Assembly: GCA_013378385.1 (NCBI GenBank)
Contig: JACAFS010000032.1
Span: 1-11,756, forward strand
Length of the DNA: 11,756 nt
Direction: 5' to 3'
DNA from: Nitrososphaerota archaeon
Lineage (GTDB): Archaea; Thermoproteota; Nitrososphaeria; Nitrososphaerales; UBA57
Shown here: piece after piece, positions 694 through 11,756 of the stretch
Layout: every line of letters begins with the position of its first letter
How positions within the stretch are numbered: position 1 is the stretch's first letter
The notes under the pieces: model-generated
What the model saw: the letters and a program-made list of their open reading frames with translations, nothing else
Database searches by the model: none
What the model was told of the DNA's origin: nothing
Program-made: the position numbers and the translations under genes

Positions 694-1491
694 GTGAGTT
701 ACAATCCAAATAATTATGATTATTCAGGTATAATTGAGAAGATTGGTAAATTCATCCTCAATAAAACCCTTGAATCAAATTCAAATGGCATAGTCATAGG
801 ATTGAGTGGAGGGATAGATTCTAGTGTATGTCTTGCATTGGCCGCAAAATCACTACCAAATCATAATATTATTGGATTAATAATGCCCATGAATGGAATA
901 ACTCCTGAAGATGACGAGATGGATGCTGTAAATCTAGCAAATAAATATAATATTGAATATAGAACAATTCCTATCAATAATATCGAAGATAGTTTCAAAG
1001 CAGAAATATATCAATCGTATTCTAATGAACTCAATGAGAATAAAGTTGCACAAGGAAATTTATTAGCTAGAATAAGAATGTCAATTTTATACTATCACGC
1101 CAATCTATTGAACAGAATCGTCATAGGAACCGGTGATAAAAGTGAAGCTATGTTGGGGTATTTTACAAAATATGGAGACGGCGGAGTAGATATTGCACCA
1201 ATTGCAGATTTATATAAAACACAAGTAAGAGTTATTGCAAAAGAATTAGGCATCTCGAATAAAATAATAAATAAAAAAAGTGGCCCAAGATTATGGATTG
1301 ATCATGATGCCGAAGATGAATTAAATATGACTTATGATGAGATAGACCCAATATTATTCCAATATAGCAATAATAAAATCAACGAAGACTCATTATCGCA
1401 AGAACAAAAAATTATCTTTAATAATATCAAAGATAGGAATGTCAGGAATAATCACAAAAGCAGAATGCCTGAAATTTGTATTCTTGATTAA
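694..1491 (+). CDS. nadE: NH3-dependent NAD+ synthetase
   Basis: 265 aa with a GTG start. It has the PP-loop ATP pyrophosphatase motif GLSGGIDSSV, then GTGDKSE and YFTKYGDGG typical of NadE. Confidence 0.93.
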   Translation: MSYNPNNYDYSGIIEKIGKFILNKTLESNSNGIVIGLSGGIDSSVCLALAAKSLPNHNIIGLIMPMNGITPEDDEMDAVNLANKYNIEYRTIPINNIEDSFKAEIYQSYSNELNENKVAQGNLLARIRMSILYYHANLLNRIVIGTGDKSEAMLGYFTKYGDGGVDIAPIADLYKTQVRVIAKELGISNKIINKKSGPRLWIDHDAEDELNMTYDEIDPILFQYSNNKINEDSLSQEQKIIFNNIKDRNVRNNHKSRMPEICILD

Positions 1492-1719
1492 TTATAGACT
1501 TAGGCCCATTTTTCTTGCAATTGATCTAGCTTTTTGTGAGAATGTTATCTTATCTTTTTCATTCATTGAATTAGTTTTTTGTAATATTATTGCGTCTTCA
1601 GATGCCATAACAAATAGTTTATTTCCAGCTTCTAATTGAAGTTTATTGCGTACATCTACAGGAATAACAACTTGGCCTTTTGCAGATAATTTTGTTGTAT
1701 CAATTGATATATTTTCCAT
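1492..1719 (-). CDS. AbrB/SpoVT/MazE-type DNA-binding protein
   Basis: The core LSAKGQVVIPVDVRNKLQLEAGNKLFV is the swapped-hairpin AbrB motif (KGQ[VI]xIP..[IV]R..L.l..G). The track ORF starts at TTG 1755. I prefer the in-frame ATG at 1719 (MENISID...). The stop abuts the nadE stop with no spacer. Confidence 0.75.
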   Translation of the reverse strand: MENISIDTTKLSAKGQVVIPVDVRNKLQLEAGNKLFVMASEDAIILQKTNSMNEKDKITFSQKARSIARKMGLSL

Positions 1720-1831
1720 ATGAAAACAATGAATAATCAACAATATTGAGCGCAATCAGAAATATTCTTTACAATTTAGTCAAGGAAAATCACTCAAATT
1801 CAATAAATCATAAGTTAATCATCCAATATAC

Positions 1832-2065
1832 ATGGGCAGAATCACTACTTTGTTGACTATATGGATTGCGGGATTTATGGTCGGTTTTGTTGGATGGTAT
1901 CTATATCCACAATTATCCTCCGTACTAAGCCTATTTACTCCATTAGTTCTCAGTATATTTGATGCACAGATAACAAATGCAGCAATTGCAGGATTTGCAA
2001 CATCAATCGTTTCAGTTGTTGTAGTATTGGTCTGGGCGAATAAAACTAAAAACAATAGATTTTAG
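1832..2065 (+). CDS. Small 2-TM membrane protein (hypothetical)
   Basis: 77 aa with two clear hydrophobic helices and a basic C-terminus (NKTKNNRF). The overlapping minus-strand ORF 1819..2055 looks like its antisense shadow. Confidence 0.5.
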   Translation: MGRITTLLTIWIAGFMVGFVGWYLYPQLSSVLSLFTPLVLSIFDAQITNAAIAGFATSIVSVVVVLVWANKTKNNRF

Positions 2066-2146
2066 TAATGATATTTTATCACTAGAATTTGAAGCTAGTG
2101 TTAAAGTTAAGTATATTAAATAATTTCAGAATAATAGGATTGGGAT

Positions 2147-3001
2147 ATGAAACAAAAGAATGTAATAATAACCGGAATAACATCGGGAATAGGGACTGAA
2201 ATAGCTTTAGATTTAGCTAAGCATGGTCATATGATCAATCTAGTTGCAAGAAGTGAAGAATCTGGAAATATAATCAAGGATTTGATCTTTAAAAAAACAA
2301 AAAATAACGATATACATGTATACAAATGTGATCTGTCACTCCAAAAAGACATTCGAGAATTTGTAGATAATTTCAAAAAACAGAACAACAGTCTTGACAT
2401 ATTGATAAACAATGCAGCAATGGTTCCAAAAGAACGAATAATTACAAGTGAAGGAATAGAAACTCAATTTGCCGTAAATTATATTGCGCCATATCTACTA
2501 TCCCGACTTTTATTGGATATGTTAAAGAAGAGTTCTCCGTCCAGGATAGTAAATACATCATCTGTTGCTCATACGTCGGGAAATCTCAATGTCGATGACT
2601 TTCAGAGATTAAATGAAAAATACTCAATGCGTGGAATGCGTGCATATTGCAATTCAAAATTAGCTTTAACAATAGATACTGTCGAGCTTGCAAAAGAATT
2701 GGAAGGAACCGGAGTCACCTGCAATGCAGTTCATCCAGGAGGAGTAAATACCAATATCATGCGATATAACATCCCAAAGTTTTTGCAGCCACTGATGAAA
2801 AAAACGAAATTTATGGGAACGCTCCGGCTGTCGCCTAAAGAAGGAGCTAATCCAATCATAGAGGCAGCATGTTCAGACAAATATGATAAGGTATCTGGCA
2901 AATATTTCGATAGATTCACGCAAAAAGATGCATCAAAAAAGGTTTTTGATAAAGACGTTGTTGCAAAACTATCTGAATACACGAAAAGTATTGTAGCATA
3001 A
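2147..3001 (+). CDS. Short-chain dehydrogenase/reductase (classical SDR, retinol-dehydrogenase-like)
   Basis: 284 aa with the cofactor motif TGITSGIG, NNAA, the catalytic Ser in NTSSVAH and the YxxxK motif (YCNSK). Confidence 0.9.
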   Translation: MKQKNVIITGITSGIGTEIALDLAKHGHMINLVARSEESGNIIKDLIFKKTKNNDIHVYKCDLSLQKDIREFVDNFKKQNNSLDILINNAAMVPKERIITSEGIETQFAVNYIAPYLLSRLLLDMLKKSSPSRIVNTSSVAHTSGNLNVDDFQRLNEKYSMRGMRAYCNSKLALTIDTVELAKELEGTGVTCNAVHPGGVNTNIMRYNIPKFLQPLMKKTKFMGTLRLSPKEGANPIIEAACSDKYDKVSGKYFDRFTQKDASKKVFDKDVVAKLSEYTKSIVA

Positions 3002-3044
3002 CACCCATCAAATCTATATAGTATTATTCCCACAAATTTCTTAC

Positions 3045-3133
3045 GGTGGGATGGCGGAGAAATACAATTCTGCAACGGTTTACGCGTGCGCCTGCAAAGC
3101 GTATATACATGGGTTCAAATCCCATTCCCACCT
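3045..3133 (+). tRNA. tRNA-Cys (anticodon GCA) with about 13-17 extra nt in the D-arm region (probable non-canonical intron)
   Basis: The acceptor stem is a perfect 7 bp, GGTGGGA/TCCCACC. The T arm is ATGGG-TTCAAAT-CCCAT. The anticodon arm is TGCGC-CTGCAAA-GCGTA, with GCA at 3094-3096, and there is a 5-nt variable loop. U8 and A14 are present, and the discriminator is U, as expected for tRNA-Cys. There are 35 nt between the acceptor and anticodon stems, against 18-22 canonically. TATA-like CTATATAG lies 27 nt upstream and a T6 run lies just downstream. Confidence 0.75.
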
Positions 3134-3185
3134 TGTTATCTATTTACTTGTTTTTTAGAAAAAGTTAAAGGAGCAGAAATTACAA

Positions 3186-4025
3186 TTGACACATTTGACT
3201 AATGTCGTAATTGATCATGATGTAATTGGCTGGGCACATAGCAATATGCAAAAACTCAAAGATCGATATAATAATATCTACATAGTTGGAAAAGATAATT
3301 CTCCAGAAGAATTAATGAATAATAATATTAGTGATCTGAATATTGCTAAATATTGCCTTAATAATAATTGCGATCTCGTGACTGCAGATAAGAAATCATA
3401 TGTTGATTGGTTTAATTCATATAATGGAATAACTAAATTAGTCATTTCAAAATTTGATTATTGGAATGAAGGACATAGACCAATTTTACTTATTCAAATT
3501 GAAAATACTAATCATATTGAGAACATTACACCATATAATTTCAATCTCAAAATATCAAAGCCACTTGAAACAGCTCCATCTAGATTCAAGAATAAAATCA
3601 TAACAATGGTTAATGAATCATTACTTCACTTTCCAGAATTATCAGATGATAGAATTACTTTGGGAATAACACATGTCAATGATGGAAATGCATCATGGGA
3701 AGAGGGCTATAAGATTAGGCTGAATCCGAGAAGACTGACATATTTTACTATAGGACATGAACTCATGCATTTGTTACAGTTTAAGGGAGATTTGCCCATG
3801 ACTGAAAACTCCACAGATATCTTCACACTTGCAAGATCCATGTTATTTCTTGACGAACCTCCTTGTTATCTAAAAATACCCAGGAAATTACAGAATTATT
3901 GGGAAGAAAATGCCGAATCAATACACAGTATCTGTAAAGATGCAATTGAATACAGAAAAACACATAGAAATTATATAAAATGGACTGAAGACAAATTCGG
4001 TCAATTGACTATCAAAACGAGATAA
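3186..4025 (+). CDS. Two-domain protein: N-terminal PIN-like (DUF5615-like) domain fused to a C-terminal HExxH putative zinc metallopeptidase domain
   Basis: 279 aa with a TTG start. The N-terminus has VVIDHDV ... ISDLNIAKYCLNNNCDLVTADKKSY, which resembles the DUF5615/Mut7-C PIN-like signature (lDEN ... sDeeil.lA...g.ilvT.DkDF). The C-terminus has FTIGHELMHLLQ (HELMH encoded at 3756-3770), as in SprT/DUF45-type metallopeptidases. The domain calls are from memory of the motifs. Confidence 0.65.
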   Translation: MTHLTNVVIDHDVIGWAHSNMQKLKDRYNNIYIVGKDNSPEELMNNNISDLNIAKYCLNNNCDLVTADKKSYVDWFNSYNGITKLVISKFDYWNEGHRPILLIQIENTNHIENITPYNFNLKISKPLETAPSRFKNKIITMVNESLLHFPELSDDRITLGITHVNDGNASWEEGYKIRLNPRRLTYFTIGHELMHLLQFKGDLPMTENSTDIFTLARSMLFLDEPPCYLKIPRKLQNYWEENAESIHSICKDAIEYRKTHRNYIKWTEDKFGQLTIKTR

Positions 4026-4028
4026 TCT

Positions 4029-4049
4029 CCCGAGATGGAATATCTCGGG
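4029..4049 (+). terminator. Perfect 8-bp hairpin followed by T3, just after the 3186..4025 stop
   Basis: CCCGAGAT (4029-4036) pairs with ATCTCGGG (4042-4049) across a 5-nt loop, followed by TTT. A second hairpin, TTGGAT/ATCCAA, lies at 4051-4073. Confidence 0.35.
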
Positions 4050-4179
4050 TTTGGATATCGAATTAAAATCCAACTGAACCATAGATGAAAAACAATTCGA
4101 TAATTATTTTATTATATTTATCTATATAATATACAGAGTTAATTGTCAGTTCTGATAACCAAATAATAAAATAACTTGA

Positions 4180-4461
4180 TTATGGATATAGTAAATTATT
4201 TGCTCTATCTATCTCGGCTTGAAATGAATCTTCTGCAACAATTGACATCACTATGACAAGAACGGTTCCATTGTTTGAATCAAATGCACTCATTTCGTCA
4301 ATAGTCCATCCTTCATGAGAGAGTATGTTTAATTCACGCTCTACTTTTGATTCAGAACCTGATAATACTTTGTATGCTAAATCGTCATCTAATTCTTCAT
4401 CTTCGTATTCATCATCTTCAAATTCATCATCTTCTAATTCTTCATCTTTGTCGATATGCAT
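4180..4461 (-). CDS. Acidic-tailed small protein, DUF4177-like C-terminal domain
   Basis: 93 aa. The N-terminal 27 residues are almost all D/E. The remainder, YKVLSG...ELNILSHEGWTIDEMSAF...GTVLVIVMS, resembles the DUF4177 pattern (YKV...L+.lg.eGWel...). Confidence 0.55.
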   Translation of the reverse strand: MHIDKDEELEDDEFEDDEYEDEELDDDLAYKVLSGSESKVERELNILSHEGWTIDEMSAFDSNNGTVLVIVMSIVAEDSFQAEIDRANNLLYP

Positions 4462-4494
4462 ATTTGTGATAATAAATAATCTATATATAAATCC

Positions 4495-4734
4495 ATGGAC
4501 GAAAAAATTTTTATCGAAATCAATAGAATGAAAAATTCCTTATATGATAGAATCTCAAATTCAATGTCCAATGAAAAAAATGTTGCAAAATCAAAAAAAA
4601 TTCATAATGAATTAGAAATCATGTTGAGTATTTGGACCGATAATGAAAATATGAAGACACTTTCGGATAAAGATAAAACTGACATCTTCAATACAGCAAA
4701 ATTAATCATAAAAAAGGCAGATGACTTACTATAG
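4495..4734 (+). CDS. Hypothetical helical protein
   Basis: 79-aa ORF that is K/E/N-rich, with no recognisable motif. The TATA-like TATATATAAA lies only about 14 nt upstream, so the start is uncertain. Confidence 0.4.
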   Translation: MDEKIFIEINRMKNSLYDRISNSMSNEKNVAKSKKIHNELEIMLSIWTDNENMKTLSDKDKTDIFNTAKLIIKKADDLL

Positions 4735-4769
4735 ATCAATTAAGGTGAAGGCACACGAACAAAATAATC

Positions 4770-5066
4770 TTGAAAATCAATGAATTCCAGCGTAAATTTA
4801 GATATTATTTCATCATAATATTCATTACATATGTAATTTTAGATTTATTTGGCATATTTCCATACGGAATCGGACGAATTCCAGTTAAACCTGAATCTAC
4901 TATTCCTGGCTTGAACTATCTTTATGCTATTGGTTTTTCCTATCTTTTTGCAATAATAATGTCGATAATTAATCCTAAACGGACAATATTATGGTTATTT
5001 GCAATTCCTCCAGTAGCATTAATCTATAGGATTCTGAAAAAAATTACAAAATATTATAAAAAATAA
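4770..5066 (+). CDS. Hypothetical 3-TM membrane protein
   Basis: 98-aa ORF with a TTG start, hydrophobic helices and a basic C-terminus (KKITKYYKK). No family is recognised. Confidence 0.45.
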   Translation: MKINEFQRKFRYYFIIIFITYVILDLFGIFPYGIGRIPVKPESTIPGLNYLYAIGFSYLFAIIMSIINPKRTILWLFAIPPVALIYRILKKITKYYKK

Positions 5067-5462
5067 TTATTTCTCTTTCAACAGGATAATTTCTGATTTA
5101 TCATACGACCCAAAGTATCGAAATAATTTCAGTGCAATGTAAAACAAATGATATTTTGTTCTAAATTTTTTATCTATAATTTTATAATCTGTATGACTTA
5201 ATTCCACTACTTCAGCTTTAATTTCAATCTTATCTCCAGTTATTTTACCTGAATTTGTACATGGAGCAATAATGGCCTTGTGATTGTTCTTTATTCTCTT
5301 AACTTTACCTGCGGATTTAGATGTTTTTACATAACCTAAAGTTCCGTCGGTAACTACCCATACCGGTGTATGAACTACGTCGCCTGATTTCCTATATGTT
5401 GTAAGGTTTATTGTTCTACTATCAAGTATTTTATTAAATAAATTCAAATTCATTTCAATCAC
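5067..5462 (-). CDS. PPOX-class (pyridoxamine 5'-phosphate oxidase-like, probable F420/FMN-binding) split-barrel protein
   Basis: 131 aa. INLTTYRKSGDVVHTPVWVV.DG.LGYVKTSKSAGKVKRIKNNHKAIIAPC matches the PPOX/F420-dependent family pattern (l.T.rkdG.p..tPVW...dg.lyv.t...s.KvkRlrnnp.v.lapc). The track start is GTG at 5462, with an alternative ATG at 5453. Confidence 0.8.
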   Translation of the reverse strand: MIEMNLNLFNKILDSRTINLTTYRKSGDVVHTPVWVVTDGTLGYVKTSKSAGKVKRIKNNHKAIIAPCTNSGKITGDKIEIKAEVVELSHTDYKIIDKKFRTKYHLFYIALKLFRYFGSYDKSEIILLKEK

Positions 5463-5575
5463 ATAATCAAGATTATATTATGAATCAAAATCATCATATC
5501 ATATTATAAATTTACTGAACAAGATAATTTAACAAATCATAACAATTATTAGAGATTAATCAACTAAATAATCAA

Positions 5576-5671
5576 ATGCTTGCAGATCCCATGTTCAAAA
5601 AGGCGATAATTATTGGCGGACTTATATTTGTAGGAGCGATTTTATTGCTTTTTTACGAGATTTTGAGGTAA
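5576..5671 (+). CDS. Possible 31-aa single-TM micro-protein
   Basis: An ATG-started ORF, MLADPMFKKAIIIGGLIFVGAILLLFYEILR*, lies inside a 355-bp intergenic gap. A T7 run at 5761-5767 lies downstream. The only evidence is the ORF and its hydrophobicity. Confidence 0.25.
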   Translation: MLADPMFKKAIIIGGLIFVGAILLLFYEILR

Positions 5672-5817
5672 AATAACCAATAAAATGCTAATTTTGATTA
5701 TCCGGTAACTTTAAATTAGATAAATACACTATAAGATTTGGATTTCAGCATAACAGGGGATTTTTTTAAATCTCACACCTCGGTAAGGAGGCTGTTTGTT
5801 GTATCCCATTAATTTTA

Positions 5818-6507
5818 TCAAATTAAATCTAACCAACGATTAAAGATTATTCTTCCATTAGAATTGACTTTCTCTACTTTTTCGTCTAGATTTGACAATA
5901 TATTGGATTTATCAATAGATTCAGATAAAAGATCAGATTCAAATTTAGCAGTTATATTTTGTACTATGTCTTTCGTAATTTCTAAATGAAACAATAATCC
6001 ATAACATGTCTTTCTATAAATAAATGCTTGAATGTCAGAGATTTTACTAGAAGCTAATTTAGTAGAGTTATCCGGTAATGAGAAGATATCCCCGTGCCAA
6101 TGGAATGCAAGAAATTCATTTTCAAGATTCTGAAAGATTGTGTCTTCTTTATTAAAAATTTTTACATTATGCCAGCCAAGTTCTTGTTGAGAATTTCTGT
6201 ATATTAAACTATTCAATGCACTTGCAATGATTTGACTTCCTAAACATATTCCAATTATGGGTCTTTTAAGTTCTAAATATTTTTTCACTAATTCAATTTC
6301 AGTCTCAATAAATGAATAACGTGATTTTTCATTGACGCTCATTGGACCGCCCATAATAATAAGAGCGTCATAATCTAGAAGATTTTCATAATCAGAAATG
6401 AGATTTTTACAATCAAAACCTATATTTCTTTTCGCCATTAAATCTGCAATGATTCCTGGAGTCTCAATATCAATATGTTGAACGACAAGGATATTTTTGG
6501 AATTCAC
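5818..6507 (-). CDS. Class I glutamine amidotransferase (GATase1, GuaA-N-like stand-alone)
   Basis: 229 aa with a GTG start. It has the nucleophile elbow IIGICLGSQIIA, an FHWHGD segment, and the His-Glu pair in LFHLE. Confidence 0.88.
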   Translation of the reverse strand: MNSKNILVVQHIDIETPGIIADLMAKRNIGFDCKNLISDYENLLDYDALIIMGGPMSVNEKSRYSFIETEIELVKKYLELKRPIIGICLGSQIIASALNSLIYRNSQQELGWHNVKIFNKEDTIFQNLENEFLAFHWHGDIFSLPDNSTKLASSKISDIQAFIYRKTCYGLLFHLEITKDIVQNITAKFESDLLSESIDKSNILSNLDEKVEKVNSNGRIIFNRWLDLI

Positions 6508-6525
6508 AATATATTTGATGGATTT

Positions 6526-6533
6526 TTATATAA
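6526..6533. promoter_or_regulatory. Palindromic TATA box TTATATAA midway between divergent leaderless genes
   Basis: The centre at 6529.5 is 22.5 nt from the minus-strand GTG (6507) and 24.5 nt from the plus-strand ATG (6554). Confidence 0.4.
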
Positions 6534-6553
6534 TAAACTTAGATGCTAAAACT

Positions 6554-6766
6554 ATGTTAGAATGTAAAGATTGTAGGTTAGAGTTTACCGGAAAAGGCCC
6601 TAAATCAGATGTAATTTTCGAAGAATTCTGCCCCAAGTGTGGAAGTTATGAAATATTTGTCAAGAATAGTTCAAATCCAATTACTAAATCGATTATTGGC
6701 TGGACTGTCGTATTTCTGTTCATTAGTGCAGTACTTCTTCCATTGATTTGGTACATTCTTATATAG
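6554..6766 (+). CDS. Zinc-ribbon protein with a C-terminal TM anchor
   Basis: MLECKDCRLEF...FCPKCGSYEI (CxxC...CxxC) is followed by the hydrophobic IIGWTVVFLFISAVLLPLIWYILI. I prefer ATG 6554 to the track start 6497. The 6497 start overlaps the divergent GATase gene and lies upstream of the TATA box. Confidence 0.65.
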   Translation: MLECKDCRLEFTGKGPKSDVIFEEFCPKCGSYEIFVKNSSNPITKSIIGWTVVFLFISAVLLPLIWYILI

Positions 6767-6800
6767 AAATTATTACAGTTAATTTCAGGAGGATGTTTAA

Positions 6801-6848
6801 ATGGACGGTTGTAAATGTGGAAGTTCTTGTGATTGTGGCAGTAAATAG
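6801..6848 (+). CDS. 15-aa Cys-rich metallothionein-like micro-ORF (MDGCKCGSSCDCGSK)
   Basis: The ATG has AGGAGGA (6787-6793) 7 nt upstream. The peptide has a CxCxxxCxC pattern with Gly/Ser spacers and a CGSK terminus, like the fungal Cu-metallothionein of Neurospora (from memory ...SSCNCGS...CGSK). It is too short for the ORF track. Confidence 0.4.
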   Translation: MDGCKCGSSCDCGSK

Positions 6849-6990
6849 ATTAGTAATATTTTAGTGCGTGTTTCACGTTTAATTTTTATGAATAAATTTG
6901 AAACACTTCACACAATAATTGGTAAGATTATGATTTTATATTTAGCTATAGGCCTTATTATTGAGTTTTTTAGAGATTAAGTTGATTGAC

Positions 6991-7233
6991 ATGACAGATT
7001 TAGAACCAGATGAATTAGAGATACTTAACATGATAGAAATAGCAAAAAAATTAGGGGACGATAAATTAATCATAGCTCTATCGAAAGAGCTCGAGATAAT
7101 AAAAGAGAGAAATGAAGTTAGAAGAAATCCAAAGTCATTTATTGACGATCAGAAAGTTTTCTGCTACAACTGCAACACTAATGTAGAGAGTTCTCATAGA
7201 TTTTGTTTTCAATGCGGGGTGTTTCTTGATTAA
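6991..7233 (+). CDS. Small protein with a C-terminal zinc ribbon
   Basis: The N-terminal half is an acidic helix, followed by FCYNCNTNVESSHRFCFQCGVFL (CxxC-x10-CxxC). I prefer ATG 6991 to the track TTG at 6961. Confidence 0.6.
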   Translation: MTDLEPDELEILNMIEIAKKLGDDKLIIALSKELEIIKERNEVRRNPKSFIDDQKVFCYNCNTNVESSHRFCFQCGVFLD

Positions 7234-7452
7234 TTGAATAAATCAGACATATTGTTCGGGGGAATAATGGCATTTGCAATGTCTTTTCTCATGTCACTTG
7301 TAATGACGTATGTGTCGATTGGATTAGTGTCCGACTTTCTCATAATTTGGCTGAAATCATTTGTTATTGGGCTGATTGTCTCTTTTCCAATAGCGTTGTT
7401 TATAACGCCAATTGCAGCCAAAATAGTGAAAATGGTTGTAAAGACTGCGTAA
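7234..7452 (+). CDS. DUF2798-like small membrane protein
   Basis: 72 aa, starting at TTG immediately after the preceding stop (an alternative ATG gives MAFAMS...). FAMSFLMSLVMTYVSIGL...WLKSFVIGLIVSFPIALFITP resembles the DUF2798 pattern, from memory. Confidence 0.55.
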   Translation: MNKSDILFGGIMAFAMSFLMSLVMTYVSIGLVSDFLIIWLKSFVIGLIVSFPIALFITPIAAKIVKMVVKTA

Positions 7453-7575
7453 ATGCTCTCTGAGAAAGATATTGATCATGAACCTATCTAATCAAGTAAT
7501 CTACATCACAAAATTCTAATCGTGAATAAGTTTATTAGAGCGAGATAATTTAGAATTGATAGGAGTAATAATAAG

Positions 7576-7722
7576 ATGTCATTTAAAGACGAACGAGAAA
7601 TGCACAAAGCTACCTGCGCCGACTGTGGTAAAGAATGTGAAGTACCATTCAAACCAGACGAAGACAGACCAGTTTACTGCAAAGACTGTTTCCAAAAACA
7701 TAGAAAACCACGAAGTTTCTGA
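7576..7722 (+). CDS. CxxC-x17-CxxC zinc-ribbon protein (48 aa)
   Basis: The product is MSFKDEREMHKATCADCGKECEVPFKPDEDRPVYCKDCFQKHRKPRSF*. ATCADCGKECEVPFKP...RPVYC.DCF is the conserved CxxC-x17-CxxC domain signature. AGGAG (7561-7565) lies upstream and T5/T7 runs lie downstream. It is missed by the track, which lists an overlapping 63-aa ORF in another frame. Confidence 0.8.
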   Translation: MSFKDEREMHKATCADCGKECEVPFKPDEDRPVYCKDCFQKHRKPRSF

Positions 7723-7795
7723 GATTAGTCTAAGTATTTTTATTTAGGTTTATCGAAATGCAGCGTTTGCTATTTTTTTGTAAAAAATCCAAAAA

Positions 7796-7835
7796 CTATC
7801 AATATCGATGTCGATATCGATGACGATACTGATAG
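7796..7835. repeat. TCGAT hexamer-phased array inside a CTATCA/TGATAG inverted repeat
   Basis: The sequence is CTATCA-at-ATCGAT-GTCGAT-ATCGAT-GACGAT-ac-TGATAG. Four hexamers lie in 6-nt phase in a CpG-poor spacer. It contains the left copy of a 19-bp direct repeat (7810-7828). Confidence 0.6.
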
Positions 7836-7959
7836 TTTATATTATTTTATCCAGTTTTTTAGAATATTTCTGATCATTTGTTCGTAGTTTTAGTTTTAAA
7901 ATATTAACTATTTGTATGATAGTTATTAATATATATTAAGTATACTGATATAATTATTA

Positions 7960-8370
7960 ATGTATGTACGTAGAAAAAATGTAAAAGGATTTTCATATGC
8001 ATATCTAGTAGAAAGTAAATGGGATAAGGAAAAGAAACAATCGTATCAAGTTGTAATAAAATATCTAGGAAGGTTCGAAAATCTAAAACTTGATAAGTTA
8101 ACTTCGGAAGAACTTGCAGTGGTGGGCAAATATATGAATACAAAATTGCAGGTAAGTTGGAATATGGACTCTCATATACGTAAATATCAACAGTTAACGA
8201 ACAAAAATAAGAATAAAATGATAAAACGGAAATTAGTCGAACAAAGAAAGATAGAGAAAGTGCAGGAAAAAGTACTTTCAGATCTAAAAATGGATAAACG
8301 GCAGTTCTCAGACAGGTTCGGATGGAAGAATACTCTATCAAATTCCATAAAAATGGATATAACAGTATAG
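7960..8370 (+). CDS. Small basic protein with a transposase/integrase-type N-terminal motif (possible mobile-element remnant or DNA-binding protein)
   Basis: 136 aa. MYVRRKNVKGFSYAYLVESKWDKEKKQSYQVVIKYLG follows the M[YF][VI]R.K...Y.YLVES...(x)...[VI].YLG pattern I recall at the N-termini of IS1634/IS4-group transposases and some integrase-like proteins. The rest is K/Q/E-rich with no catalytic domain. It is flanked by 17/19 direct repeats. Confidence 0.55.
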   Translation: MYVRRKNVKGFSYAYLVESKWDKEKKQSYQVVIKYLGRFENLKLDKLTSEELAVVGKYMNTKLQVSWNMDSHIRKYQQLTNKNKNKMIKRKLVEQRKIEKVQEKVLSDLKMDKRQFSDRFGWKNTLSNSIKMDITV

Positions 8371-8385
8371 AAGGACTTTATTGAC

Positions 8386-8404
8386 GTCGATATCGTTGTC
8401 GATA
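8386..8404. repeat. Right copy of the 19-bp direct repeat (GTCGATATCGTTGTCGATA)
   Basis: It matches GTCGATATCGATGACGATA (7810-7828) at 17/19 positions and has the same TCG(A/T)T 6-nt phasing. It lies 16 nt after the 7960..8370 stop and directly abuts promoter module A. Confidence 0.55.
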
Positions 8405-8411
8405 AGAATCG

Positions 8412-8438
8412 TCCACATGATTTTTTAATTATTTTGAC
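8412..8438 (+). promoter_or_regulatory. Conserved promoter/operator module, copy A (upstream of MORN gene 1)
   Basis: The sequence is TCCACAtgattTTTTAattATTTTgac, ending 11 nt before GTG 8450. See the five-way alignment in the findings. Confidence 0.6.
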
Positions 8439-8449
8439 TTATTCATAGT

Positions 8450-8785
8450 GTGAGCCATAATGTTGATGCCATCGAATATCCCGATGGATCAAAATATTAC
8501 GGAGAAGTGAAGGAAGGTAGTCCACATGGCAAGGGCATTTCCACGTTTCCAGACGGTACCATTTATGATGGAGAATGGCAGATGGGCAAAAGGGAAGGCA
8601 CAGGAATCATGACATATCCCAATGGAATAAAGTACGAAGGTTCATGGAAAAACGATAAGAAAAACGGTAAAGGAACTATGATATACGCAGATGGTACAAA
8701 TGAAGACCTAGAATTTATCGATGATGAACCGGTCAACAAAAGCTCAAAGAAGAAAAAGTCGTTCGAGATAGATATTGATTTTTAA
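8450..8785 (+). CDS. MORN-repeat protein (3 to 4 repeats, basic/acidic C-terminal tail)
   Basis: 111 aa with a GTG start. It contains YYGEVKEGSPHGKGISTFPDGTIYDGEWQMGKREGTGIMTYPNGIKYEGSWKNDKKNGKGTMIYADGT, which fits consecutive Y.G.w..gk.hG.G MORN units. The tail is KSSKKKKSFEIDIDF. Confidence 0.85.
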   Translation: MSHNVDAIEYPDGSKYYGEVKEGSPHGKGISTFPDGTIYDGEWQMGKREGTGIMTYPNGIKYEGSWKNDKKNGKGTMIYADGTNEDLEFIDDEPVNKSSKKKKSFEIDIDF

Positions 8786-8792
8786 TAAATCA

Positions 8793-8819
8793 TCCACATT
8801 AGTTTTTAGGTATTTTGAC
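8793..8819 (+). promoter_or_regulatory. Conserved promoter/operator module, copy B (upstream of the GNAT gene)
   Basis: The sequence is TCCACAttagtTTTTAggtATTTTgac, ending 15 nt before ATG 8835. This argues against the track's TTG 8775 start, which would place the module inside the CDS. Confidence 0.6.
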
Positions 8820-8834
8820 GTAAATCAGACCATA

Positions 8835-9320
8835 ATGATAAATGAATATACAAAAAGTAATTGTTCTGAAATTCTCTATGTTGTAAATGACGCTGCCACA
8901 AGATACAAGAATTCCATCCCTGACGATTGTTGGAAAGAGCCCTACATGCCAGAAAGGGAATTACTAGATGAATTCAGAGACGGAGTAAGAATGTTAGGCT
9001 ACATGCATGGCAACAAATTAATCGCAGTGATGGGCTTCCAGGAAATAATGGATGTTGTTCTGATAAGGCATGCTTACACCTTGACTGCATGCCAAGGCAA
9101 AGGTACAGGAAGTGCATTGCTCGAACATCTATTGGGGAAATACCTGGATTCTCGCTTGTTGGTGGGCACTTGGATGGATGCAGAATGGGCAATCAGGTTT
9201 TATGAAAAATTCGGCTTTGTCCTCCATGAAAAAAAGGAATCAAATTTCTTGCTTGGAAAATACTGGAACATATCGCCGAAGCAAATCGAACATTCGGTTG
9301 TATTGGAAAAGCATGGATAG
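8835..9320 (+). CDS. GNAT-family N-acetyltransferase
   Basis: 161 aa from ATG 8835. It has the acetyl-CoA motif A, CQGKGTGSALLEHLL, then RFYEKFGF and a C-terminal KYWNISPKQIEHSVVL typical of one GNAT subfamily. GC is higher here (48% counted over 9061-9120). Confidence 0.88.
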   Translation: MINEYTKSNCSEILYVVNDAATRYKNSIPDDCWKEPYMPERELLDEFRDGVRMLGYMHGNKLIAVMGFQEIMDVVLIRHAYTLTACQGKGTGSALLEHLLGKYLDSRLLVGTWMDAEWAIRFYEKFGFVLHEKKESNFLLGKYWNISPKQIEHSVVLEKHG

Positions 9321-9340
9321 AGAAGAGTCGATCTAGATGG

Positions 9341-9346
9341 TTTTTT
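9341..9346 (+). terminator. Oligo-T (T6) run downstream of the GNAT gene
   Basis: TTTTTT lies 21 nt after the stop. Archaeal terminators are typically oligo-T tracts. Confidence 0.3.
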
Positions 9347-9420
9347 GATAGTATTTCGTACATATTATTAATTATTGCAAAGCCTATAATAGCTGACGTT
9401 AAGCTATTGGAATTATAACA

Positions 9421-10197
9421 ATGGTTTTTGAAAGTAATGTTCATTTTGATGAGGTTGCAAATTACTATGAGCGATTAAGAGAGGATGTATATTTAGATGA
9501 TATAATGGACGTTATGAAAAAATATACAACGAAAAATGATCTTTTGATGGACATTGCATCTGGAACTGGCAGAATATCAACCAATGTATGTAGATCACTT
9601 AATCTTAGACTTATACTGGTTGATAAAAACATCCACATGCTTAATGTCGCAATGAAAAAAATCAATATGCAACGTAAAATGGATAAATTAATCAATATGA
9701 ATATTTATGAGTTCTTAAAAGATGGTGGAAAAACTGATAACGTAAAGATTAATGACATTGACATATTTACATGTTTTAATGCAATACATTGGACGGGGTT
9801 AGGATTATTTAAGAAACTTGAAGAGAAGATGGCTCCAGGGTCTTTATTCGTCGTACTGACTAGAACAAAGAAACAGAATAATAAATCATTTTTTGGGTTG
9901 AATTTTCCAAAGTTTGCCGATAAAGAAACTCGCCTTTTTTCGTTAGATCAATTACTCGATGAATTTAAGAGATGCAATTTATCCGTAGTAGACACCAAGT
10001 TTTTAAAACATCAAATATTGCAAAAAAAATCCAAATTATTAGAACAGGCAAAGAAAAAATCATATTCGACCTTTTCACTATATTCAAACGAAGAATATGA
10101 AAAAGCAATGAGAATATTTAAGGACAATATCTCATCCATGCCGGAAATGCTAGATGTGCGATATGAAAATTTGCTGATTATTGGAAAGAAACTGTAA
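9421..10197 (+). CDS. Class I SAM-dependent methyltransferase
   Basis: 258 aa with motif I LLMDIASGTGRIS, a downstream acidic residue after beta-2 (LILVDKN), and a motif IV-like FTCFNAIHW. The substrate is not inferable. Confidence 0.82.
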   Translation: MVFESNVHFDEVANYYERLREDVYLDDIMDVMKKYTTKNDLLMDIASGTGRISTNVCRSLNLRLILVDKNIHMLNVAMKKINMQRKMDKLINMNIYEFLKDGGKTDNVKINDIDIFTCFNAIHWTGLGLFKKLEEKMAPGSLFVVLTRTKKQNNKSFFGLNFPKFADKETRLFSLDQLLDEFKRCNLSVVDTKFLKHQILQKKSKLLEQAKKKSYSTFSLYSNEEYEKAMRIFKDNISSMPEMLDVRYENLLIIGKKL

Positions 10198-10200
10198 AGT

Positions 10201-10244
10201 GCCGTTAAACGCGGTTATCCGCAACTAATTTTAATGATTTTGAC
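10201..10244 (+). promoter_or_regulatory. Conserved module, copy C, with a 5' GC hairpin extension (upstream of the cupredoxin gene)
   Basis: The sequence is gccgttaaacGCGGttatCCGCAactaaTTTTAatgATTTTgac. The TCCGCA hexamer is at 10218-10223. It starts 4 nt after the methyltransferase stop and ends 26 nt before ATG 10271. Confidence 0.6.
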
Positions 10245-10270
10245 TCAGAATTTTATAGGATAATAAATCA

Positions 10271-10873
10271 ATGTCAAATTCTAATTCAAAGTATATAGCT
10301 ATAATACTAATTCCCATAATTCTAGTTTTAGGGTACTTTTTACTATTTTCCAATAATCAAAATGAAGGCATTGATTCTAAGTCTGCAATAATTGAAGAAG
10401 AAAATATAATTTCCGTCAAAAAAGATCCTGTTGTTGATGTTAATCGAGCTGAACCAGTTGTTGAGCCAGAAGTTATTGTTCCAGAACCTGTTGTAGAACC
10501 AGAGCCCGAACCTGTTGTTGAGCCGGTAGTAGAACCTGAACCAGAGCCCGAACCTGTTGTTGAACCAGAAGTTATTGAAATACAAATTTTAGAAGGAAAA
10601 GTAGAGATAATTATCGAGAATACAGAATTTATTCCTAATGAAATCATTATTCGTGTCGGTACGATAGTTACATGGATCAATAAAGACAACAGCGATCCAT
10701 TATATCCAGAACATACAGTTTCAATAGACATACTAGAAATAAACTCGCCAGAAATAATCTTCGGCGGAGGCTCAAATGAAGAATGGAGTCATACTTTTGT
10801 CGAGATAGGGGAATTCAGCTATCATTGCACCATACATCCTTGGATGACTGGCAAAGTCATTGTAGTAGATTGA
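10271..10873 (+). CDS. Membrane-anchored amicyanin/plastocyanin-like type-1 copper protein (cupredoxin) with a Pro/Glu/Val linker
   Basis: 200 aa. An N-terminal signal anchor (IAIILIPIILVLGYFLLF) is followed by an (EPVV/EPEP)n linker and a cupredoxin fold. The copper ligands are His (PEHTV) and C-x2-H-x2-M in YHCTIHPWMTGKVIVV. Compare amicyanin YHCTPHPFMRGKVVV, from memory. Confidence 0.88.
   Translation: MSNSNSKYIAIILIPIILVLGYFLLFSNNQNEGIDSKSAIIEEENIISVKKDPVVDVNRAEPVVEPEVIVPEPVVEPEPEPVVEPVVEPEPEPEPVVEPEVIEIQILEGKVEIIIENTEFIPNEIIIRVGTIVTWINKDNSDPLYPEHTVSIDILEINSPEIIFGGGSNEEWSHTFVEIGEFSYHCTIHPWMTGKVIVVD
10451..10575 (+). repeat. Low-complexity coding repeat (EPVVEPEP linker) including a perfect 26-bp direct repeat
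   Basis: GAACCAGAGCCCGAACCTGTTGTTGA occurs at 10496-10521 and again at 10538-10563, an offset of 42 nt or 14 codons. Confidence 0.85.
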
Positions 10874-10883
10874 TATTCGTAGT

Positions 10884-10927
10884 ACCGCTAAACGCGGTTA
10901 TCCGCAACTGATTTTAGTTATTTTGTG
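10884..10927 (+). promoter_or_regulatory. Conserved module, copy D, with a 5' GC hairpin extension (upstream of MORN gene 2)
   Basis: The sequence is accgctaaacGCGGttatCCGCAactgaTTTTAgttATTTTgtg, matching copy C at 37/44. The TCCGCA hexamer is at 10901-10906. It ends 22 nt before ATG 10950. Confidence 0.6.
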
Positions 10928-10949
10928 ATACACGCAATTGTAAGGCCCA

Positions 10950-11285
10950 ATGACGGAAGAAAAAAGAGAATTTGAAGAGAGAGGAAGAAGAGAAAGATTG
11001 CAGAGAAGGAAAAGAAGAGAAACTGACTCAATCTATGTAGGCGAAGTCAAGGACGGCAAGAGGCACGGAAGTGGAACTCTCACATTGCCCGACGGAGAGA
11101 AGTACGAAGGGGAATTCAAGGACGGCGAGTATAACGGAAATGGAATTCTCACATTGCCCGACGGAGAGAAGTACGAAGGGGAATTCAAAGATGGCAAACA
11201 ATGGACCGTAACCTTCACCGATTTAGATGGCTCGAAGACGGAATGGAAAGACGGTTATGAAATAGACGATGAATTAGATGGATGA
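10950..11285 (+). CDS. MORN-repeat protein with an Arg/Lys/Glu-rich N-terminus and an acidic C-terminus
   Basis: 111 aa. The N-terminus is MTEEKREFEERGRRERLQRRKRRE. It is followed by YVGEVKDGKRHGSGTLTLPDGEKYEGEFKDGEYNGNGILTLPDGEKYEGEFKDGKQW (MORN units). GC is high (58% counted over 11041-11100). Confidence 0.85.
   Translation: MTEEKREFEERGRRERLQRRKRRETDSIYVGEVKDGKRHGSGTLTLPDGEKYEGEFKDGEYNGNGILTLPDGEKYEGEFKDGKQWTVTFTDLDGSKTEWKDGYEIDDELDG
11073..11195 (+). repeat. Tandem 69-bp (one MORN unit) duplication inside the CDS
   Basis: 11073-11126 matches 11142-11195 at 51/54. This includes a perfect 42-mer at 11078-11119 and 11147-11188. Confidence 0.9.
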
Positions 11286-11479
11286 CGATGTTTCGGCATT
11301 CTTCTTTTCTTTATTTCTCTCCAGGACGTGTGTATGGTGCCAGCAACGACAAATGCAATGAGGCCCACGGCCCAAGATTCCTCGAGAAGCATATTGTTGA
11401 TGTAGACATTCCAGATAACGGCTCCCATTCCAGTAGCTGTCGACACGCCCAAAATGTACTCGTTGCTTTTTAGAGACAT
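11255..11479 (-). CDS. Small 2-TM membrane protein (hypothetical)
   Basis: 74 aa with two hydrophobic segments followed by the basic REIKKRRMPKHRH. The palindromic TATA TTATATAA (11501-11508) is centred 25.5 nt upstream of ATG 11479. The 3' end overlaps the MORN gene by 31 nt. The plus-strand ORF 11282..11473 is taken as its shadow. Confidence 0.5.
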   Translation of the reverse strand: MSLKSNEYILGVSTATGMGAVIWNVYINNMLLEESWAVGLIAFVVAGTIHTSWREIKKRRMPKHRHPSNSSSIS

Positions 11480-11534
11480 ATTATACCGAATTATGTTCCA
11501 TTATATAACGCTGAGGTTCAAGTAACCGGGATCA

Positions 11535-11561
11535 TCCACAACTAATTTTAGTTATTTTACC
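11535..11561 (+). promoter_or_regulatory. Conserved promoter/operator module, copy E (upstream of the terminal membrane-protein ORF)
   Basis: The sequence is TCCACAactaaTTTTAgttATTTTacc, ending 12 nt before GTG 11574. Confidence 0.55.
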
Positions 11562-11573
11562 GTGTGAATACAT

Positions 11574-11756
11574 GTGGGGAAGAAAAAAAATTCAGAAGAC
11601 AAGTTCCAATGGACTGTAGGAACAGTAGCAATTGCACTTGTGGTACTCTATCTTTCCAGAGGACTAATCGCCACCGTGATAGAGGGAATAATACTTTTGA
11701 TAATATACATAATCAGCATTTTTGCAGTTGCCTCTGGGGCATATTTCTTCTGGACA
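11574..11756 (+). CDS. 5' part of a membrane protein (partial, runs off the window)
   Basis: The frame from GTG 11574 is open for 61 codons to the window edge (VGKKKNSEDKFQWTVGTVAIALVVLYLSRGLIATVIEGIILLIIYIISIFAVASGAYFFW). It is strongly hydrophobic and preceded by module copy E. It is absent from the track because it has no stop codon in the window. Confidence 0.45.
   Translation, partial: MGKKKNSEDKFQWTVGTVAIALVVLYLSRGLIATVIEGIILLIIYIISIFAVASGAYFFWT

Follow-up and report, generated by a model that had tools for sequence, protein, structure and literature searches.

The core promoters of archaea carry a T/A-rich box about 29-31 nt before the start codon of leaderless genes, together with an element at the position of the transcription factor B (TFB) recognition element (BRE), in strict orientation towards the gene (PMC7289017), and 11/11 Thaumarchaeota analysed by GeneMarkS-2 belong to its leaderless group D (PMC6028130). 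In the regulons of TFB paralogues, such as the Halobacterium TFBs and the TFB2 and TFB3 of Sulfolobus, a promoter class is set by the BRE or by BRE and TATA box together; Sulfolobus has a TFB2-specific regulon (bioRxiv 10.64898/2026.09.06.749720) and, among ammonia-oxidising archaea (AOA), which are multi-TFB organisms, Nitrosopumilus maritimus has eight TFBs, the dominant one being switched in biofilms (PMC12448741). Integron arrays are made of small, co-oriented and unrelated genes with a recurring short element, an order that varies between strains and N+1 elements, while phage "morons" and the promoters of T7-like phages and giant viruses form serial promoter-gene units in which a near-identical short promoter precedes unrelated genes. 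Finally, flexible islands of marine microbes, including AOA, combine strain-variable genes, conserved flanks and assembly breaks (PMC3990693; bioRxiv 10.1101/2024.04.23.590705) and are enriched in small proteins of unknown function. Here, we analyse an 11,756-nt stretch of a Nitrososphaerota archaeon (contig JACAFS010000032.1 of assembly GCA_013378385.1), called the window below, which is a complete NCBI contig. In this window, a preliminary description had reported a short module repeated upstream of five genes. The module locus shares features with these systems, and it differs in defined ways from flexible islands, integron arrays, moron-like units and TFB-paralogue promoter classes.

We consider it likely, though far from certain, that the module, 24-27 nt long, is a core promoter that comes with every gene cassette of a tandem array, the array being hypervariable and belonging to a Nitrosopumilales-like thaumarchaeon of the sea. 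To its left, this array would be bounded by a conserved zf_Tbcl_2 gene and to its right, at least in part of the strains, by a convergent PcrB gene. Its cassettes would duplicate and then be reshuffled by recombination with crossovers inside the module, the crossovers being the part of this scheme that is shown, and any gene landing behind a module would inherit the same promoter. The preliminary description had proposed instead a putative regulon, and a dispersed set of functionally linked genes is not supported by the data: the sites found lie in tandem arrays of co-oriented cassettes only, within one narrow clade.

The pattern TCCRCA-N5-TTTTA-N3-ATTTT (TCCRCANNNNNTTTTANNNATTTT) is matched exactly at positions 8412, 8793, 10218, 10901 and 11535, always on the + strand (5/5), where 0 matches are expected by chance and 0/200 dinucleotide-preserving shuffles of the window contained one. 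The five gap-free + strand sites of the preliminary description are thus borne out; the ATC-R prefix of sites A, B and E reads as it had stated, and the distances that it gave to the start codons (GTG 8450, ATG 8835, ATG 10271, ATG 10950 and GTG 11574) are all correct. Module A (8412..8438, + strand; TCCACA TGATT TTTTA ATT ATTTT GAC) precedes the gene of the MORN-repeat protein MORN-A and is identical in 11 related loci; GTG 8450 stands 14 nt past its ATTTT, a leaderless geometry. Module B (8793..8819, + strand) precedes a GNAT gene whose ATG 8835 lies 18 nt past ATTTT, and its orthologous copies have TCCGCA in place of TCCACA. Modules C and D, each with an extended left part (GTGCCGTTAAACGCGGTTA-TCCGCAACTAATTTTAATGATTTT in C), occupy 10198..10244 and 10881..10927 on the + strand, before the cupredoxin gene and the second MORN gene, MORN-D, respectively, and share a longer 45-nt repeat (10198-10242 and 10881-10925, repeat D3). 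Module E (11535..11561, + strand) precedes memE, a small membrane-protein gene whose GTG 11574 is 15 nt past ATTTT, and the window ends 180 nt past this module. With <=2 mismatches, a single extra site is found at 6503-6526 (TTCACAATATATTTGATGGATTTT), in the divergent promoter region of the GATase and 6554 genes. This look-alike is conserved in relatives, precedes the canonical TTTTATATAATAA box of the 6554 gene itself and is probably unrelated to the module family.

Near-identical and related contigs are found in marine metagenomes such as those of TARA, ENA and JGI; they are referred to below, as loci or contigs, by the labels L001-L227. A metagenome scan with CGCAAYYRWTTTWWGTYATTTT returned 70 stretches, about 27 of them genuine (marine, GC content 0.32-0.41, often with 2-6 copies), and all of these ~27 loci are co-oriented gene arrays. 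With <=5 mismatches allowed, the 22-nt core CGCAACTGATTTTAGTTATTTT is found at 115 places on the + strand and at 0 on the - strand across 259 kb of related loci, which contradicts the proposal, raised as a possible refutation, that the motif might lie equally on either strand. Every copy precedes an open reading frame, apart from the terminal copy and the copies cut by contig ends. The 131 module instances lead to 82 distinct downstream proteins in 18 clusters, of which at least 12 are credible families. MORN proteins dominate (45/82 unique cassette proteins), and the other products include GNAT, cupredoxin, an 89-93-aa membrane protein, a 38-aa peptide (pep38), Zn-ribbon, Cys-rich and coiled-coil proteins, as well as a CAP/SCP domain protein (3.1e-9). 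In some haplotypes, a free-standing HNH endonuclease of 116-119 aa is also module-driven (PHROG 2.8e-7; PADLOC, ZorE-like, 1.3e-6); it lies at 14397-14747 in L144, 4374-4724 in L190 and 832-1191 in L184.

Genomes were scanned for the motif with the strict pattern RRTYRTCCRCANNNNNTTTTARKKATTTT, which fits A-E plus a sixth copy in L003. Among 185,579 species genomes (596 Gb), a set that included no complete genome of this lineage, it gave four chance hits and, in a single metagenome-assembled genome (MAG), the orthologues of sites A and B. This MAG, "Thaumarchaeota archaeon ATL_18", is 92% identical to window positions 1468-9350. A dispersed regulon was therefore not found: the species genomes yield only these A/B orthologues in one MAG, and the genuine metagenome matches are all in arrays. 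In large collections, a generic 16-base pattern is swamped by chance matches, and a viral scan gave single matches only among the at least 120 matches listed. The one motif-like match in phages (L015/L057/L091) was rejected as due to chance, since it stands behind a bacterial-type promoter and a Shine-Dalgarno sequence and before a family-B DNA polymerase. Few homologues of MORN-A were found, the distant ones lying on Bacteroidota-like and giant-virus-like contigs without the module. In a more divergent lineage, in which the 136-aa protein found at the head of the array is 67% identical, the modules read TTCGCAATTATTTTATTTTATTAC and TCCATAATTATTTTATGTTATTTT (L223 5937-6000, L225 1440-1546) and the zf gene comes first in the array, followed by the gene of the 136-aa protein and by a MORN gene of 130 aa; the module family thus extends beyond the species of the window.

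Could these sites be the generic promoter of the organism, or a chance or low-complexity resemblance? The genome is AT-rich with common T tracts, and there is the one two-mismatch look-alike at 6503. Against this, the shuffles gave nothing, about 15 neighbouring promoters have TTATATA/GTATAAAT-type boxes without the module, the strand distribution is 115 to 0, and the strict pattern has only four chance hits in 596 Gb. We regard this explanation as close to negligible. The earlier wording of a "distinct promoter class" is supported in so far as the module differs from the TTATATA-type promoters of the flanking core genes.

The zf_Tbcl_2 protein (48 aa; 7576-7722) marks the left edge of the array, and a lookup of contigs carrying this exact protein, which defines our long-contig set, returned ten contigs of 24-198 kb, all of which (10/10) end 3-7 kb beyond the zf gene. 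The MORN-D protein is found exclusively on contigs <2 kb. Thus, assemblies break systematically in the region of the five sites. Downstream of the zf gene, the contigs carry small genes, nearly all on the + strand, with a content and order that vary by contig, giving at least 10 arrangements. MORN-A and GNAT, for example, are absent in the L182/L204/L216 lineage; in the L143 lineage, the methyltransferase gene and module C are absent and the cupredoxin gene has another upstream sequence; and in L003, MORN-D is preceded by the membrane-protein gene instead of the cupredoxin gene. The right end is visible in L194 and L163, where a convergent PcrB/GGGP-synthase gene (Pfam 4.8e-53) closes the array. 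There, a terminal module without downstream gene follows the last MORN gene (L194 1079-1100, L163 1229-1250), its last bases overlapping the Lys and stop codons (AAA TAA) of the convergent PcrB gene.

This locus therefore behaves as a flexible island, with variable gene content between conserved flanks among co-occurring strains and assemblies that break within it. The AOA islands described so far in PMC3990693 and bioRxiv 10.1101/2024.04.23.590705 (glycosylation, phosphorus, ammonium, metal, defence) differ in that they were not described as co-oriented cassettes with a shared promoter block, and neither paper mentions this array. Likewise, the papers searched on Thaumarchaeota MORN proteins, Nitrosopumilus islands and AOA promoter motifs contained no description of the module or of the array, and in the literature searched we found no description of an expanded family of small cytoplasmic MORN-repeat proteins. 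Three side observations concern the arrangement of the array. First, another left flank is seen in L190 (1-3800) and L153 (1-270), with GAPDH, LysE, paralogous small membrane proteins and a 75-aa minus-strand gene, and the pep38, memE and HNH cassettes recur behind this GAPDH/LysE-side flank. Second, L143 holds a direct duplication of ~1.9 kb (14041-14893 vs 15972-16824; m74, cys79, zr43 and module), which is a genuine tandem duplication or else was created by the assembly. Finally, the zf_Tbcl_2 gene, single in the window, is tandemly duplicated in L143 (10001-10501), L146, L148, L150, L182, L204 and L216.

The comparison of cassettes across these arrangements places the crossovers in the module. 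Between unrelated cassettes, shared homology starts at the C of CGCAAC and stops at ATTTT(G); of the 3,020 pairs, 762 have their left boundary at that C and 892 others have it at the T tract. The hexamer, which had been described as invariant, reads TCCGCA, TCCACA, AACGCA, AGCGCA, TACGCA, TTCGCA or TCCATA in related contigs, and its first two bases (TC, AA, AG, TA, TT) go with the upstream neighbour, so that TCC is junction sequence contributed by that neighbour and not part of the shared block as first thought. Upstream of memE, the relatives have the TCCGCA, AACGCA, AGCGCA or TTCGCA variant behind eight distinct left flanks; MORN-90 and pep38 each have five, and one left flank (the 3′ end of a 43-aa Zn-ribbon gene) stands before three different genes. 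In L001, L003 and L004, the MORN-D gene keeps the same right half of the module with another left flank and the hexamer AACGCA, while module C accompanies the cupredoxin gene behind differing upstream neighbours in L182, L204, L216 and L227 and is missing in the L143 lineage. Some variants track the left side (ACTA or ACTG before MORN-D, set by the upstream gene) and others track the right side (TTTTAATGATTTT, always with the cupredoxin gene). Crossovers thus took place inside the module, at no fixed point. This shuffling of flanks, together with the gene-less terminal copy (N+1), is what duplication followed by unequal or homologous recombination between short repeats yields.

The same data invite a different reading, in which the module is mainly a recombination site, integron-like att or HNH target, and promoter activity is secondary or coincidental. 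Indeed, a 22-23-nt block is sharply bounded between unrelated flanks, these flanks are met in many combinations with crossovers within the block, N cassettes come with N+1 modules, the last being the gene-less copy at the PcrB end, and the HNH endonuclease is itself a cassette. However, neither an integrase nor a recombinase was found in 10 kb of left flank and 4 kb of right flank, the block has no significant hairpin potential (z from -0.2 to -1.8), the unfixed crossover points fit homologous recombination or gene conversion better, unequal crossing-over also gives N+1 repeats, and the strand bias and the 15/25-nt spacing to the start codons are predicted by a promoter and not by an att site. 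We therefore hold a mainly recombinational role to be very unlikely. The HNH endonuclease could promote gene conversion in the array.

Several known types of element were rejected in the course of this comparison. Only housekeeping genes and genes of unknown kind, and no recombinase, were seen in the 10 kb of left flank, the 4 kb of right flank and the alternative left flank. In the island, no Rfam family was matched, and seven folded repeat variants reached z values of +0.3 to -1.8, no better than shuffles; a non-coding RNA or an attC-like hairpin is ruled out by these two results. An integron was rejected too, as the locus has cassettes of variable order (at least 10 arrangements) but neither IntI or another recombinase nor an attC-like fold; moreover, each cassette has its own promoter rather than depending on a single Pc, and the crossovers are unfixed. 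Miniature inverted-repeat transposable elements and repetitive extragenic palindromic (REP-type) repeats do not agree with the single orientation, the absence of significant fold and the fixed spacing to start codons. A provirus or defence island was dismissed since PHROG and PADLOC match only the HNH cassette, one MORN protein and, weakly, a Zn-ribbon. Finally, unlike phage and viral promoter-gene units, the array is chromosomal, lies between housekeeping genes and carries cassettes in which no viral hallmark genes were found.

As for promoter function, the preliminary description had placed the module like an archaeal core promoter, and the spacing to start codons and the position of the T block, both read from sequence, are consistent with this. 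Six unrelated families (memE, pep38, membrane protein of 170 aa, coiled-coil protein of 289 aa, Zn protein of 150 aa, MORN variants) have 15 nt between ATTTT and the start codon. This spacer measures 14 nt for MORN-A, 18 nt for GNAT and 29 nt for the cupredoxin, and a further five families have 24-25 nt; independent gene calls agree with the start positions. The 15-nt class would be leaderless, and the 24-25-nt class would have a short leader. Counted from the start of the hexamer, the start codon comes after 39 nt in six unrelated families; the value is 38 for A and 42 for B. We looked for a T/A-rich box of ~8 bp centred ~26-27 nt upstream of the transcription start, which coincides with the start codon where there is no leader. 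The first T block of the 15-nt class has the position of a TATA box, beginning 29-31 nt before the start codon, and the TATA 8-mers of neighbouring leaderless core genes (nadE, YCII, 6554, 136-aa and 74-aa genes) begin at -29 to -31. Because it lies at the same distance from the start codon as these boxes, the first T block (RATTTTAG) would be the TATA equivalent, and CRCAAY would occupy the position of the BRE. As expected of a promoter, the modules are intergenic and point towards the downstream gene, 115 to 0.

From this geometry, transcription is predicted to start ~39-40 nt past the first base of the hexamer. Genes behind A, B and E would be leaderless, with starts at 8450-8452, 8832-8835 and 11574-11575, that is at the start codon itself, while C and D would have starts at ~10258 and ~10941 and short leaders, 9-13 nt long, that contain GTAAGG or AGGA. 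The module also has a TATA-like tetramer at +28 to +31, moderately conserved, whose place would be near -10. The module also departs from ordinary archaeal BRE/TATA promoters: ~22 nt are near-identical before unrelated genes, the BRE position holds a conserved CRCAAY that contains C and G, unlike the A-rich BRE of PMC7289017, the box is TTTTAGTT, and a second conserved T tract (TTATTTT) lies between the box and the start site.

The T-rich block could alternatively act mainly as an oligo-T terminator or insulator for the upstream cassette, perhaps besides a promoter function. The module starts 8-42 nt after the upstream stop codon and contains two T4-T6 tracts, and its terminal copy follows the last MORN gene with no gene downstream; in addition, many cassette genes of related loci are followed by another conserved block of their own, the 3′ block AAAACCGCGAATATCTCG. 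Such a role nevertheless leaves the conservation of CRCAAY and the constant spacing to the start codon that follows unexplained. Module E follows a divergent promoter region and not a + strand gene, variants of the module often go with the downstream gene, as TTTTAATGATTTT does with the cupredoxin, and the window lacks the 3′ block (0 matches at <=3 mismatches). A predominant terminator function is unlikely on these grounds. The AAAACCGCGAATATCTCG block deserves a description of its own: it is intergenic, lies 3′ of the stop codons of many cassette genes in relatives (in L143 at 13320-13360, 13690-13720 and 14035-14065, and in many metagenome loci) and is also met by itself, in places where the following gene has the opposite orientation.

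Whether a dedicated factor reads this promoter bears directly on the regulon first proposed. The idea of a distinct promoter class, with a dedicated factor or a specialised TFB paralogue co-regulating the downstream genes, is compatible with the cassette-borne promoter that we favour. It draws on the contrast between the module and the adjacent generic TTATATA promoters, on CRCAAY, which is unusual at the BRE position and well conserved, on the ATTATTTTATGTT variant, in which indels compensate each other so that CGCAA and ATTTT stay 22 nt apart, and on the several TFBs that AOA carry. On the other hand, no factor was identified, the one conserved candidate at the array head, the 136-aa protein, being without fold match, and the motif is not dispersed but confined to arrays of a narrow clade, whereas TFB-paralogue regulons are dispersed and functionally coherent; no paralogue is linked to the recombining arrays. 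Within the hexamer, TCC is part of the junction with the upstream neighbour, and orthologues can lose the module: in 92%-identical lineages A and B are kept, C is absent, the cupredoxin gene having another upstream region, and in L001/L003/L004 the hexamer of D is replaced. Between the 92%-identical lineages, A and B show 1 change in 48 nt vs ~4 expected, a difference that is not significant with so few sites. Since common descent and recombination explain the near-identity without selection for a binding site, no dedicated factor is required. It is possible that a specialised TFB paralogue or regulator reads the promoter, and co-regulation by such a factor is a tentative, minority reading.

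Some observations weigh against the cassette-borne promoter itself. The promoter assignment is drawn from geometry; CRCAAY is not A-rich and TTTTAGTT matches the TTATATA boxes poorly, so that a special factor could be needed. A dedicated recombination site, too, would fit the sharp bounds of the 22-nt block before unrelated genes and the terminal copy that has no gene. Chimeric assembly could account for some of the cassette orders, though many junctions recur in independent assemblies, and the other left flank of L190 and L153 suggests either a second array locus or a rearranged strain. Finally, diverged module copies may exist outside arrays, the strict scan having covered no complete genome of the lineage.

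The genes downstream of the modules are those that had been named, two MORN genes, a GNAT, a cupredoxin and a membrane protein, as Pfam scores and the hydrophobic full-length relatives of memE confirm. On the + strand, MORN-A (111 aa; 8450..8785; Pfam MORN 1.8e-23) and the GNAT acetyltransferase (161 aa; 8835..9320; Acetyltransf_1 1.1e-10) are followed by a weakly SAM-methyltransferase-like gene (9421..10197), which has its own generic promoter without module and is strain-dependent, being present, absent or reduced to a 3′ remnant. The cupredoxin (10271..10873, + strand) is membrane-anchored with a Pro/Glu/Val repeat linker; it scores 23.3 bits against Copper-bind (cutoff 21.2) and 26.6 against Cupredoxin_1, just under the cutoff of 27. 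Its linker is a Pro/Glu/Val-rich tandem repeat (window 10439-10572, repeat families D2 and D4) whose length differs by strain, the protein measuring 167-220 aa across loci. MORN-D (111 aa; 10950..11285, + strand; Pfam MORN 3.9e-16) represents the dominant cassette family. The 74-aa gene (11255..11479, - strand), with its own TTATATAA promoter, is the sole recurrent minus-strand gene of the array. Only the 5′ part of memE (11574..11756, + strand) is present, cut by the contig end; its full-length relatives are hydrophobic proteins of 89-93 aa with only a below-cutoff 8xMP match.

Between the zf_Tbcl_2 gene and module A, the first gene past the conserved flank encodes a basic, lineage-specific protein of 136 aa (7960..8370, + strand), whose homologues all have >=63% identity and come from the same clade only. 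It has no family match, and its AF2 model (pLDDT 74) found no match in the PDB with Foldseek. A 46-nt imperfect palindrome centred on TCGATATCGA (7793..7838, repeats D6 and I14) lies upstream of this gene, and a second copy (8384-8405) lies immediately upstream of module A. It is built on GTCGATATCG(A/T)TG(A/T)CGATA, with 4 matches vs 0.02 expected, recurs inside the L143 array (13078-13110 and 14085-14115) and could be a candidate operator or boundary element. Elsewhere in the window, the tRNA of the preliminary description was not called by ARAGORN and reaches 23.3 bits in Rfam against a gathering threshold of 29. In the tRNA-like sequence at 3043-3130, the acceptor stem reads GGTGGGA/TCCCACC and the anticodon loop CUGCAAA, and a T arm is present; the sequence would be a tRNA-Cys(GCA) whose D-arm region seems to hold an insertion or intron.

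Marine ammonia-oxidising archaea rank with the ocean's most abundant cells. Regions such as the one described here are precisely where short-read assemblies break, and the flexible genome of these archaea is for that reason poorly resolved. The 22-nt block, the 15/25-nt spacing rule and the zf_Tbcl_2 and PcrB flanks provide a handle to recover and phase the array from long reads, and the same handle allows transcription starts to be predicted and the question to be asked whether one AOA TFB paralogue reads a private promoter class. The link between the MORN, GNAT, cupredoxin and membrane proteins is best read as physical membership in an array and is not evidence of a shared function. Having inherited a shared promoter, the five genes of the window are probably co-expressed, through common ancestry and concerted evolution and not as a functional regulon. 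More generally, a motif shared upstream of the genes of a cluster should be interpreted with caution, as it may reflect the concerted evolution of cassettes and not a regulon.

A bolder version, which we judge quite unlikely, is an integrase-less array in which a 22-bp promoter doubles as recombination site, perhaps driven by the HNH endonuclease and perhaps read by a TFB paralogue. If promoter and recombination site were indeed one, shuffled or captured accessory genes would be expressed at once, in a "plug-and-play" manner, and the array would represent a new, promoter-centred way to build and express a flexible gene pool in abundant marine archaea.

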